Positions 6,371 through 63,799 of a stretch of 64,000 nt of DNA are shown here, one piece after another. The stretch is taken from contig OZ001293.3 in the NCBI GenBank assembly GCA_963921275.4, forward strand, positions 2,592,001 to 2,656,000, read 5' to 3'. Positions within the stretch are counted from its first letter, which is position 1, and every line of letters begins with the position of its first letter. The DNA is from an uncultured Hormoscilla sp. (GTDB lineage: Bacteria > Cyanobacteriota > Cyanobacteriia > Cyanobacteriales > Desertifilaceae). Below the pieces are notes generated by a model. The model saw only the letters and a program-made list of their open reading frames with translations, was not told the DNA's origin and made no database searches. The translations under genes and the position numbers were made by a program.

Positions 6371-8285
6371 TCACAGATTGGTATACTTAAACTTAGAGCC
6401 ACAAGCTACAGGAATCCGTCTCGCTGCCCCACGCCATAACTCCAATGCCACATCGGACAAATTTTGACCATCCGCCTGGAGCATCCGCGAGATCATGCTA
6501 ATATTGCCAAAAGACCAAAACAAGCCCGCCTCCAGCAGATACGGCTCGTTGGTTTCGGCATGCACTCTGAAGTCATACAGGGAGTAATCGCGACCGCCCA
6601 AAGCTATATGTGCCCGCTTGGCTGCATCAGAGATTTTCTCCCATAAAGAAGGCGTGACATTCCCCGGACAGACGGGTTTCACTGCTGGCTTGTCAGGTTG
6701 TTTCCTGGGCAGTCCGTCCCCTTGCAGGTCATACTTATCACGTACAGTTCTAATGGGATTGTCCTTGGTGACTAAATACTCGATCGTCGGCAGCACCCAT
6801 AACTTCCCCTCACGTTCGACTACCCCCACGCGCAGTTCCCGTCCGGGGATGTAATCTTCTACCAACAAGGTCTCGTCATGTTCAAACCCCACCCGCAATG
6901 CTTCAACTATTTGATCTTCTTCCCAAACCAAAGTCAAGCCCAAAGAATTATCTTCCGAGTTCGGCTTCACCATAAATGGGGGCTGCATGGTCACGGTATC
7001 CCCCTGGCGCACAACTTGGGCCTTGGCCACCGGGACACCAGATGCTGACACGACGCTTCTGGTTTGAGCTTTGTTAGTTGCCAGGGCAGTACAACTAGGT
7101 GGCGACCCCACTACTGGTAGCCCGAGGATGTCCTCGAAGAATCCACGGAAACTAATCATCCCTGGGACACAGAACATATGCGGCACTACTACATCCACCT
7201 CCGGTAGCCCCGCGATCGCCTCTTGGAGGGGCATCTTCTCTGATGGATGGGGTCGAGCCGGGAATCGCTTCCCGACCCTCCCTTGAGGAACCGGACTTGC
7301 GATTTTCACCGCATCCGGCTACTGGGTACTAGGCCCTTTTCATAGGTAGACTTAATAGGAATTACTTCCGTTAGCCCTTGCCGCCTGTCTTTTCTTCCCT
7401 TTCCTGGTTTAGCGAGTGGTTGTTCTGATAACCGTTAGTATCACCATTTTCAAGTCAGTTTTACCAGTTATCCATACCTTATCCTCCACTTGCGTTTCGG
7501 ATTAGTTCCGTGGCTTTTTAGGATTACTCATTCCAGCAGCTTCCTAGTATCACCGACCCACGTCAGCGCTGGCTACCCAGCATCATCTACATTACTGTAG
7601 ATGTTATCCCAGGAATTACCCCGGGCATTCGCTTCTTGGGCCATCCCTCCCCCCGTGGCTTGCGCTTAACATCTAACTTGTCCTGATGGACAGCACACGA
7701 GAGGTTACTTCGTTCCCTAACAACATTTCGCGATACCTTTAGGTCCACACTATACCCCGGGAGCTATTTGAGTACTATATTAGCCAGAGTCTAAAACTAA
7801 TACTAGCTACCATTTCCTTTTTAGGCCAGCGCATATAGCCTTATTTCGCTGGTTCCTTATAACGAGGCTTGCACATGTTTGCCTGCTCTAACCTTGGATA
7901 TCTTTCCTAGCGGCGTCACCGGCTTAGGCTGCCAGTTATCCTACATTTGAGTCCTCGCTTAGCACCACGATGATGTCGCTTCGTAGCACCGAGGACCGGT
8001 GTCACCCCCGTACCTGGGGGGAGGGGAATTTAACCCCCATGCGGTCAGAGTTCCCGGCTAATGAAACCGGGCTAGCGTTCCGTGTTTGACCACGTTAGGC
8101 TAGAACGAATCGCACAGACTGTCTAAGGATGCACCTAGCTGCCAAAGACCATCCGGGTGTACCACGGCGTAGTAGCTACTGACACCAATTGGTTGCACTA
8201 CTTCCCTTGCGTAGATTACCGACAGGTTGTAGTAGAAGTCGGATACGCGAGAACCTGCTAGGTGCAAAACTCGCAAGCAAGGCAT
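6371..8285 (-). CDS. mysD: D-Ala-D-Ala ligase-like MAA ligase, copy 1; exons 8285-8116 and 7244-6371, 347 aa if spliced
   Basis: Exon 1 MPCLRVLHLAGS..LDS joins exon 2 SEKMPLQEAI..VVPHMFCVPGM..KPNSEDNSLG..YSLYDFRV..EAGL. Total 1044 nt in frame. Lies in a mysABC context. Confidence 0.85.
7245..8115 (-). mobile_element. ORF-less group II intron, main family, copy 1 (871 nt), in mysD1
   Basis: 5' end GTGCGATTCGTTCTAG. Domain V AGCCGGATGCGGTGAAAATCGCAAGTCCGGTTC. Domain VI ends ...CTCGACCCCATCC. Confidence 0.93.
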
Positions 8286-8342
8286 TGTGTCTGATATCAT
8301 CACCAATTTTTCTGTTGTACTTGAGTTTGCTCACATATCATA

Positions 8343-8423
8343 TTAAGGGAAGATGTTTGTTTATCTTTGCTGAAAAGCATTGCCACTCCATCAACAATCA
8401 TATTAGCAGCCATGACAGGAAGC
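8343..8423 (-). pseudogene. Short relic of a sodium:solute symporter 3' end
   Basis: TTTGTTTATCTTTGCTGAAAA..ACAATCATA closely resembles 13772-13850, the end of the symporter that precedes mysD2. Confidence 0.6.
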
Positions 8424-61222: not shown

Positions 61223-61795
61223 AGTAACTCAGTCGTAATGGGTGAATTTGCAATTACAGCAGGATCGGTAAAGCTTTACGATATTTTAAAATTTTCTTGT
61301 CATATGCGGACAAGACAGCCATCTGTCTATCCCAAGAAAGCAGAGCGATCCCAACGGGATCACTCTACCTCAAAATCATGCTAATTGAAAATGGCGATTG
61401 CGCTGCATGCACGAAGCGCAAGTATTTATACTTATATTATTCCCTAACGCTTACTGCCAAAGGCTTCCGGATCTAGAACATCGGTCCAGTAGCACAAATT
61501 TTGGGTAAAGTGATTATGGCTCCTTGGGAGGTCCAGGGAGAGGGCCAGACGAGAAGATGTTGATTTTCCGTTGATTCACAGATGTTTGAATTTGTCAAGT
61601 ATTATTAATGGACCGATGTCCTAGGCACCTTCTCACGCCCAGCAGTCACCGTAGGTTGGATTTGGCAACGTTACCCAACCTACTGCGATCGCCCTTTTGC
61701 TGGGGCCATATTCACTCTTTTGCCCAGAAACCAGGTTTTTTGGAAAAACCTGGTTTCTTAATGCAAAGCGATCGGGCAGACTTCTCCAACCCACT

Positions 61796-63799
61796 CTAAT
61801 AATAGTAATACCAGTTTCCAGGTTTAATGCCATTAAGCCACCAGCGGAGCAAAGACCCAACAACTTCCACCTCAATCTCTTGTCCTTTGCGCCGTAAAAT
61901 CGCGTAGGGACTATAGGCTTCGCTGATATCCATACATTGGTGAGAGCCTTCCTTGCAAAAGGCGACAAAGGCAGGAATAGCTGCTCCCTGAGAATCCCAA
62001 TAAATTTCGCTCTTCTCCCGCCACTCCCAGAAAGCCTTCATAACTGTCTGGTGATTCAGTCCTAGCAAATTGATTGGGTCTTTAGCTGACCATTTAGCTT
62101 TGAATGCTGCCTCTAAATCTGGAGTTTCTAGCACTGAGAATACATAGTGCTCGTGGACCTCATCGCGAGCCTCATCGTTCCAGTACTGGGCTATGAGTAA
62201 TGTTGCTGAGTTAAGTTGAGGGTATTTTTCAAAACAAGCTTTAACCCAATTTGACATAGGAATCAATAATTCGCGCTCTTAGTTGTGCTGCTTCCTATTC
62301 ACTGTATAGGTGGATGGGGTCGAGCCGGGAATCGCTTCCCGACCCTCCCTTGAGGAACCGGACTTGCGATTTTCACCGCATCCGGCTACTGGGTACTAGG
62401 CCCTTTTCATAGGTAGACTTAATAGGAATTACTTCCGTTAGCCCTTGCCGCCTGTCTTTTCTTCCCTTTCCTGGTTTAGCGAGTGGTTGTTCTGATAACC
62501 GTTAGTATCACCATTTTCAAGTCAGTTTTACCAGTTATCCATACCTTATCCTCCACTTGCGTTTCGGATTAGTTCCGTGGCTTTTTAGGATTACTCATTC
62601 CAGCAGCTTCCTAGTATCACCGACCCACGTCAGCGCTGGCTACCCAGCATCATCTACATTACTGTAGATGTTATCCCAGGAATTACCCCGGGCATTCGCT
62701 TCTTGGGCCATCCCTCCCCCCGTGGCTTGCGCTTAACATCTAACTTGTCCTGATGGACAGCACACGAGAGGTTACTTCGTTCCCTAACAACATTTCGCGA
62801 TACCTTTAGGTCCACACTATACCCCGGGAGCTATTTGAGTACTATATTAGCCAGAGTCTAAAACTAATACTAGCTACCATTTCCTTTTTAGGCCAGCGCA
62901 TATAGCCTTATTTCGCTGGTTCCTTATAACGAGGCTTGCACATGTTTGCCTGCTCTAACCTTGGATATCTTTCCTAGCGGCGTCACCGGCTTAGGCTGCC
63001 AGTTATCCTACATTTGAGTCCTCGCTTAGCACCACGATGATGTCGCTTCGTAGCACCGAGGACCGGTGTCACCCCCGTACCTGGGGGGAGGGGAATTTAA
63101 CCCCCATGCGGTTCAGAGTTCCCGGCTAATGAAACCGGGCTAGCGTTCCGTGTTTGACCACGTTAGGCTAGAACGAATCGCACAGTCTCCAGAAGGATCT
63201 CCCTCTAGACAATCTTTAGCTATTTGTTTAATTTCATATTCCTTAAAGCTCCTCAGAGATTGTGGCGTGATTCCATCCTGATGAGGACGCCACATTTTAC
63301 CAATAATTTCAACTTCAATGTCATCACCCAGGCGACGGAGAATGGCATAGGGAACAAAGTCTTCCTTAACATTATTTTTTGAGGGAGACTCATTTTTGCA
63401 AAATGCAGCGAAAGCAGGAATTGCAATTCCTGCTTCATCCCAAATTAATTTGTAGTTGTGCGGTAATTTGACTTTTTGATTTTCCGATCGCAAACTGCGC
63501 ATTACTTTGTCAATTTCCTCGCGATCGTGACATGTAAATACTGGCAGATTAACTAAGTCTGTGCTTAAGTGATATTTTGAAGTTAGACCAGCGGACCAAT
63601 CGGGGTTTTCCAGTAATGAGAATATGTATTCGTCATAGACTGCGTCATGTTCCCACTCATTACAATACTCAACGAGCAACACAATAGACTGAAGCTGGCT
63701 GTACTTTTTAAAGCAAGCGGCTGCAAATGGCTTGACCCAATCTTCTATTAGCTTTGCCCGTAATTGGGCTGTTTCTTCTGCTGTGTACATGTATTTCAT
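61796..63799 (-). pseudogene. Hypothetical tandem two-repeat protein, intron-split, second repeat with stop and frameshift
   Basis: Both repeats contain CF.KY.QL, AIPAF.AFCK, PYAILRR and EVE..G. Spliced junction GD|YLYSE* aligns with KYMYTAEE of repeat 1. Confidence 0.65.
62312..63183 (-). mobile_element. ORF-less group II intron, main family, copy 7 (872 nt)
   Basis: One-nt insertion relative to the other copies. Sense, junction T|AC. Confidence 0.93.

Follow-up and report, generated by a model that had tools for sequence, protein, structure and literature searches.

The window analysed here, a stretch of 64,000 nt from an uncultured Hormoscilla sp. (assembly GCA_963921275.4, contig OZ001293.3, positions 2,592,001 to 2,656,000), contains seven near-identical copies of an 871-nt element that is a real group IIB2 intron without an open reading frame (ORF). 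Its anatomy, its copy number, its precise insertion without target duplication and the pairing of its guide with the target were observed directly. Very probably, the element is a non-autonomous retroelement mobilised in trans by resident intron-encoded proteins (IEPs). An initial annotation of this DNA had proposed a very recent retroelement, and near-identical copies, guide-target pairing and exact empty sites agree with its spread by retrohoming.

Structure and ends of the element

Copies 1 (7245–8115, minus strand) and 2 (12680–13550, minus) occupy homologous positions of two paralogous ATP-grasp genes, copy 1 lying in sense orientation inside a D-Ala-D-Ala-ligase-like gene. For copies 3 (21904–22774, plus), which serves as the reference for all sub-parts, and 4 (28318–29188, minus) no interrupted ORF was called. 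Copy 5 (46282–47152, plus) is inserted in sense in queG, 21 codons ahead of the stop codon, copy 6 (54897–55767, minus) ends 24 nt upstream of the 5' end of an intron bearing a reverse transcriptase (RT), and copy 7 (62312–63183, minus) lies near the 3' end of an ORF of about 260 codons, for which no NCBIfam family was found. All coordinates and strands are as initially annotated, and so is the divergence of 0–2 nt from the consensus: copies 1, 2 and 4 show no difference, copies 3 and 5 one substitution each, copy 6 two differences, and copy 7 one inserted A, which accounts for its 872 nt. Together, the copies make up 6,098 of 64,000 nt, confirming the claimed share of about 9.5%.

The GTGCG start described before is present in all seven copies. 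Among the 140 copies of the genome it is found in 139, with GTGTG in the remaining one, and both forms fall within the GUGYG consensus of the 5' boundary. The IIB2 5' consensus GUGCGAUUC, as given in parts of PMC4649490 and PMC8643678, is also present. Rfam model RF00029 matches all seven copies with 44.4 bits (gathering score 40). From this match and the local fold, domain V (22699–22730) carries the AGC triad, a GAAA loop and a U·C mismatch as basal pair, and domain VI, which includes the 3' end (22737–22774, ...CGACCCC-AUCC), carries a bulged A. As reported, no RT ORF exists; on the intron strand stop-free frames do not exceed 58 codons, and on the opposite strand 54, and no remnant of an RT or other ORF was found in the element. 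Matches of RT sequences to the element obtained by tblastn were rejected as remnants because they read through into inserted copies. The minimum free energy (MFE) z-score of the element is −4.25. In the alifold comparison of 34 family representatives, double changes affect 65 of the 140 pairs, and the compensatory changes fall in stems of domains I, II and IV/VI. Extra stem-loops at the base of domain I are predicted by the MFE fold alone.

Although the Rfam match stops at nucleotide 869 (...CCCCAU), the terminal CC is part of the element. An 869-nt element ending in AU was rejected, empty paralogues without the CC being found at 59 of 139 sites and the CC being kept in one weak match. At both window sites examined in relatives, those of copy 5 in queG and copy 1 in the ATP-grasp gene, the orthologous position is empty in four of four congeners, with exactly 871 nt missing and no target duplication. 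Removal of 871 nt leaves both ATP-grasp frames open (about 362 codons for copy 1), whereas removal of 869 nt breaks them. Genome-wide, the longest flanking direct repeat is shorter than 2 nt at 131 of 136 sites and 2 nt long at five, in accordance with the reported lack of target duplication. No terminal inverted repeats (TIRs) were found at the element ends, and the combination of TIRs and target-site duplications (TSDs) typical of a miniature inverted-repeat transposable element (MITE) or another DNA transposon is absent.

Instead of a 3' AY with the branch A at −7 or −8, the element has an ...AUCC end and a predicted branch A at 22766 (−9). In sister families, 162 sites were tested and 49 of them have an empty paralogue. 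At 46 of these 49 the end lies four nucleotides past CGACCCC; these four nucleotides are GACT (29 sites), GACC (10), TAAT (5), GGCT (1) and AACC (1), which makes 41 non-AY ends. Across the lineage, AUCC, GACU, GACC, GGCU, AACC and AGCC ends are found, UAAU also occurring. The exon-binding site EBS3 covaries with the base at CCCC+4, and with that offset only, over 220 unique sites (U-A 159/196, plus 21 with G; A-T 15/20; G-C 4/4). Since the boundaries are fixed by empty sites and EBS3 covariation, we conclude that most members of this lineage do not end in AY and that their branch A is predicted at −9. An RT-bearing IIB2 intron of another genome (G118) likewise ends in CC, its end being fixed by an empty site in genome G433. 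In the parts concerned, Abebe 2013 and PMC7923331 give general boundary rules only.

Copies, targets and interrupted genes

The chromosome (contig C1, 6.88 Mb, 47.4% GC, weak GC skew) is part of a 7.03-Mb assembly. Two Hormoscilla metagenome-assembled genomes carry a cytochrome f 96% and 95% identical to the one found here; among the matches listed, the other 78 loci do not exceed 73%. Hormoscilla are described in part of PMC6520454 as uncultured sponge symbionts, assumed to be obligate. In a BLASTN search of the whole genome, 140 matches were 850 nt or longer with an identity of 99% or more; they all lie on C1, where every 250-kb bin is occupied. A further 426 matches were shorter or weaker. 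The 140 copies represent 1.8% of the chromosome and occupy 122 distinct targets. The predicted hundreds of copies are thus not reached by this element, for which the window density would imply about 750, but they are by the wider ORF-less lineage with its 368 domain-V hits. Copy density peaks locally in the window: 64 kb of the chromosome hold 1.3 copies on average and, on a fixed 64-kb grid, five at most, and the Poisson probability of seven or more is 4e-4 per window.

The 3' end is complete in 139 copies; 61 of these are identical to the consensus, and the mean is 1.23 differences per copy. Judged from these sequences, the element is very young and has probably spread in a single very recent burst. 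A two-base haplotype at 830–831 reads TC in 118 copies and GA, the state in sister families and in congener G004, in 21. Both haplotypes occur at one same site in ORFs of RT-bearing introns, which points towards repeated insertions. Two copies (C1:1028774 and C1:3454542) have the same 5' flank and different 3' flanks, suggesting inter-copy recombination.

In contigs of run X3, the three longest among the listed intron contigs have depths of 4,588–5,264 and the flanks 14–56; in run X4 the element has 414–418 and the flanks 2. Both runs stem from one study, possibly the source of the assembly, so that depth is not independent here; the collapsed depth, about 100-fold or higher, argues against an assembly artefact. 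No joint across the element was found in the four contig runs compared. Run X5 of another study shows an element depth of 73 with patchy flanks at about 5, which fits both cross-contamination and a shared symbiont. In about 14 runs of other studies, the share of words was near the element's share of the stretch.

The consensus target reads aaCCTTAnnGAGTCT before and A after the insertion point. The EBS1-IBS1, EBS2-IBS2 and EBS3-IBS3 pairings expected of IIB introns (IBS, intron-binding site) are all present. For copy 3, the target (21891–21903, plus) consists of IBS2 CCTTA at 21891–21895 and IBS1 at 21898–21903, as derived from its sequence, the consensus of 140 targets and the pairing counts. 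EBS1 AGACUC (22227–22232) is placed by fold and pairing counts in the loop of a covarying hairpin and forms at least five of six pairs in 101 of 115 unique targets (random sites 1.6%). EBS2 UAAGG (22160–22164), which together with EBS2a U (22158) covaries across families with target positions −13 to −9 and −14, respectively, forms at least four of five pairs in 77 of the 115 (random 8.6%). EBS3 is the U at 22267, identified by covariation; its partner, the first 3'-exon base, is A in 85 and G in 15 unique targets. Lineage-wide, in the 146 of 240 targets with at least four EBS2 pairs, EBS2a-IBS2a takes all four Watson-Crick forms (A-T 8/8, C-G 2/2, G-C 2/2, U-A 82/134). According to parts of Monachello 2021 (PMC8643678), this contact is required for RT-dependent mobility, i.e. 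DNA insertion, and not for splicing, and it is kept in ORF-less introns that are still moved in trans. The combined pairing of EBS1, EBS2, EBS2a and EBS3 is a signature of RT-driven retrohoming. A 91% identical relative in congener G004 has other EBS1, EBS2 and EBS3, and its two inspected targets fit those.

When the genome is scored with a target matrix, 476 positions reach or exceed the median of the real targets and 2,932 exceed their lower quartile; available targets are therefore not exhausted. Other paired introns host 25 of the 136 sites, 14 of them antisense in RT-bearing introns. Five self-insertions were found at nucleotide 768, and two loci carry head-to-tail arrays, a dimer and a trimer without spacer (C1:824934–826675 and C1:5447656–5450268). 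Such tandems probably arise by re-use of the 5' exon, with the first G of the resident copy as IBS3.

The 136 sites divide into 29 in sense within an ORF, 30 in antisense and 77 uncalled; the gene caller is crude (47% of random sites are uncalled), and "no ORF called" does not equal intergenic. A Pfam scan covered 40 of the 59 interrupted ORFs, three more being genes of the window. Mostly, the interrupted genes are of repeat, signalling, restriction and adhesin types (TPR, cadherin, kinases, Uma2, GmrSD). Single-copy ribD carries a sense copy (C1:37709–38579, plus) 19 codons from the gene end. Unspliced, ribD would lose or replace its last approximately 20 residues, a C-terminus that is identical in three of four congeners, and it appears to be the best case for splicing being needed. 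The two ATP-grasp paralogues of the window are 88% alike and interrupted at the same position by identical introns, so that copy 2 is either an independent insertion or a product of conversion.

The ORF-less lineage, candidate drivers and rival explanations

A domain-V profile built from 40 seed hits (E≤0.05) gave 460 hits in the genome, of which 368 belong to the ORF-less lineage (299 with intact pattern), 81 to the RT-bearing one and 11 to neither. The total is approximate, since the profile includes some partial hits and misses a damaged relative in the window. This older ORF-less member of the lineage (3446–4238, plus; 76–85% identical in pieces), the eighth in the window and absent from the initial annotation, has the GAAA loop of domain V replaced. 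A 5' end could be assigned to 364 of the hits, and these paired elements occupy 5.8% of C1. The family second in size comprises 76 members, and 33 other aligned family representatives are 67–77% identical to the 871-nt element. Several families (2, 5, 14 and others, e.g. C1:221812 and 71574) consist of 5–10 near-identical copies with disrupted domain V.

The lineage is present in four of four congeners. A domain-VI 10-mer occurs 392 times here, 131, 79, 61 and 12 times in the congeners and five times in a confamilial genome; two of the congener counts are too low because the assemblies are in more than 200 contigs. The lineage-type domain-V pattern, which does not count other intron classes, is found 301 times here and once each in six of 400 other genomes of the phylum, four of these six loci showing an RT ORF with YADD. 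Congeners G002 and G004 have 79 and 46 RVT_1 matches, which indicates heavy intron loads throughout the genus. No paper on Hormoscilla introns or on this ORF-less lineage was found in the open-access literature, and in the part of Schorn 2019 (PMC6520454) covered the term "reverse transcriptase" is absent.

The genome gives 93 RVT_1 matches and contains 14 RT ORFs that are intact, with YADD and a tail resembling HNH; these are the candidate drivers, intact IEP types lying for example at C1:2408450, 4098613, 1145831, 3169019 and 5689993. The two checked in Pfam contain RVT_N, RVT_1, GIIM and HNH. The RTs of the genome are putatively of class CL2; the RT tree holds no reference sequences, and the element itself has no IEP. 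The RT-bearing introns share the GTGCGATTCGTT start with the element, but differ in domains V-VI and end canonically in AAU (9 of 12 empty paralogues). One member of this other IIB2 lineage, internally deleted and of the candidate driver class, lies in the window (53155–54873, minus; RT fragment 53689–54525). The Rfam D5 model for plastid ndhA/ndhB likewise matches the domain V of this deleted intron above its gathering score. The burst is matched in its young age by the two largest RT families, and purines at −15 are enriched ahead of both ORF-less and RT-bearing lineages; both observations would fit a non-cognate driver. In the largest RT family, the ORF of most copies is interrupted by the element in antisense, and the passenger may thus disable a candidate driver.

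In the proposed mechanism, a transcribed copy would be spliced out with the RT/maturase/HNH protein of a resident RT-bearing IIB2 intron. The ribonucleoprotein would locate DNA sites like the consensus target through EBS1, EBS2, EBS2a and EBS3 pairing, and reverse splicing into DNA would be followed by reverse transcription. With a guide that is short and tolerates wobble pairs, hundreds to thousands of sites would qualify, allowing one very recent burst. The element would enter genes in either orientation, other introns, itself and junctions of resident copies, the latter leading to tandems. EBS3-IBS3 would set the 3' splice site four nucleotides past CGACCCC, making the AY end dispensable. 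Weak purifying selection in a host-bound symbiont is a likely permissive condition.

Several observations weigh against this interpretation. The Rfam match to domains I-IV stays below threshold (RF01999, 22 bits vs 36), and the alifold consensus misses the correct domain V and domain I base. EBS2 forms at most three of five pairs in 38 of 115 targets, and the EBS2a U faces A in only 82 of 134. Sense insertions in ORFs are not in excess over a motif-matched control (308:400:792, P=0.43; 0.07 without RT ORFs); any rescue by splicing leaves no visible mark. The trans mobilisation by an IEP encoded elsewhere, as initially suggested, is made plausible by the intact IEP RTs of the genome, but no close RT-bearing partner was found: domain I of the element is just 61–64% identical to the nearest RT-bearing introns (8 of 10 representatives in this genome) and 59–66% to those of congeners. 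As these values are far below the 85–100% of the Thermosynechococcus elongatus system, the RT ORFs remain candidate drivers.

This distance could be explained if the driver were a cognate RT-bearing parent that has since been lost, lies outside the assembly (96.7% complete) or resides on a plasmid, phage or co-symbiont, so that the element and its parent would form an ordinary pair of the TeI3/TeI4 kind. Indeed, the GUAGCC domain V and the CUCGACCC domain VI recur in RT-bearing introns of other cyanobacteria, and in a quick tree the RTs of those introns form the sister clade of the RTs of this genome. We nevertheless regard a missing parent as improbable. Of 93 RT hits, 79 were examined (14 short or weak ones left out), and in none was the lineage domain V found at the expected distance; four hits with such a domain V 1.2–1.5 kb downstream proved to be complete nested ORF-less copies. 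In congeners, 39 of 136 RT hits were examined without finding a parent, and the 34 with a downstream domain V all have the other type. Plasmids and viral contigs gave no match, and a metagenome scan returned two domain V-VI fragments without 5' end or RT. Further, the lack of any RT remnant, the ORF-less representatives of the sister families and a burst too young for a long-lost driver speak against it. Mobility is likewise accepted by the view that the intron is a poor splicer and acts mainly as an insertional mutagen, with the sense-hit ribD, queG and ATP-grasp ligases as fresh pseudogenes of a decaying symbiont genome. The missing sense bias, the dispensable look of most named interrupted genes and the non-canonical 3' end, domain V base and branch position would fit, as does the reduced 3' splice fidelity of the CC-ended RmInt1 (PMC4238363, in part). 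However, retrohoming needs excision by splicing, the end of single-copy ribD that the sense copy would replace is identical in three of four congeners, and a CC end also occurs in an RT-bearing IIB2 intron elsewhere. We hold this view to be less likely than not. Near-identical dispersed repeats are typical of MITEs, and variants shared without a clean tree together with the copy pair sharing its 5' flank only indicate some inter-copy recombination. A DNA-level element (MITE, passenger of an insertion sequence or gene-conversion repeat) or an assembly artefact is nonetheless already largely refuted by empty sites, guide and EBS3 covariation, and we give it next to no chance: TIRs and TSDs are absent, the intron ends are exact, 122 targets are distinct, the two sites compared are empty in congeners, and the collapsed contig depth speaks against an artefact.

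A more far-reaching interpretation of the trans-mobilised intron can be put forward tentatively, as a possibility we hold to fall short of even. The element may belong to an old, genus-wide, self-standing lineage resembling short interspersed elements, which shed its ORF before the genus diversified and lives on non-cognate IEPs about 62% alike in RNA. It would have its own 3' splice-site rule and spread in successive bursts with switched guides, the chromosome being in mid invasion and core genes such as ribD by now requiring a common trans splicing factor. If true, this would provide a living model, in a bacterium, of how mobile introns lead to spliceosome-like dependence. The system as such offers a natural test of how far IEP specificity relaxes, of 3' splice-site choice without AY and of whether a bacterium can come to depend on trans splicing, and the 115 natural targets of one guide set provide targeting rules for free. 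Since short-read assemblies collapse such repeats, similar loads may hide elsewhere.

Besides the introns, the window contains a duplicated block (4197–15193; sodium/solute symporter, ATP-grasp ligase and neighbours, 68–88% alike) and a 99% identical repeat (1269–1568 and 22997–23296), followed each time by the same short ORF pair and resembling an insertion sequence by layout. An 804-aa ORF with approximately 530-nt tandem repeats (29288–31702, minus) has no NCBIfam family, and a Choice-of-anchor I/PhoD-like gene (32764–36566, plus) extends over three overlapping ORFs, possibly frameshifted. Contig C3 of the assembly (31 kb, 17.6% GC vs 47% for C1) is probably foreign to the cyanobacterium.

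Comparison with known intron systems

In Thermosynechococcus elongatus, mobilisation of ORF-less TeI3 in trans by "driver" TeI4 IEPs was demonstrated (Mohr, Ghanem and Lambowitz 2010, PMC2882425, in the part covered). As reported there, ORF-less IIB introns outnumber RT-bearing ones, retargeting proceeds by EBS change, twintrons occur and A is favoured at −14/−15; the present system is similar in all these points and, in all likelihood, in its trans mobilisation. Like TeI3, the element has no ORF, retains EBS2a-IBS2a and shares its genome with intact IEPs, whereas a close ORF-bearing parent in the genome and ORF remnants in domain IV are missing. The 28 introns of T. elongatus described there (17 ORF-less) are of type IIB1, 85–100% alike, with visible ORF remnants and few in genes. 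In contrast, one family numbers 140 copies here and the lineage about 370. The element is of the IIB2 type, only 61–64% alike to any RT-bearing intron and without ORF remnant; at least 59 of its 136 sites lie in ORFs, its ends are non-AY, and its host is not known to be thermophilic.

Massive spread of group II introns, about half of them lacking an RT, is also known from Arthrospira platensis NIES-39, like the present organism a filamentous cyanobacterium with about 6.8 Mb. The main texts give at least 150 introns, 79 without RT (Fujisawa 2010, PMC2853384), or 101 by the pipeline of Miura 2022 (PMC8919778). With about 460 domain-V hits and 364 paired elements, the load found here is about three times the largest published load found in main texts, the counting methods being different. 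For Trichodesmium erythraeum, Pfreundt and Hess 2015 (PMC4649490, in part) documented 17 introns splicing in vivo. There, too, introns that lack an ORF and share this IIB2 5' end interrupt protein genes and depend on trans maturases, in far fewer copies than here. RmInt1 of Sinorhizobium meliloti, an efficient mobile intron according to part of PMC4238363, shares the CC end in place of AY; it is a single intron with its own ORF, whereas here the deviation is lineage-wide and accompanied by a predicted branch A at −9. According to the part of Zimmerly and Semper 2015 (PMC4424553) covered, ORF-less bacterial group II introns are rare and nearly always have a close RT-bearing relative. Since trans-mobilised ORF-less introns and high loads were described in T. 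elongatus and A. platensis, the kind of system is not new and its mechanism is known; noteworthy are its scale and its independence from a cognate parent.

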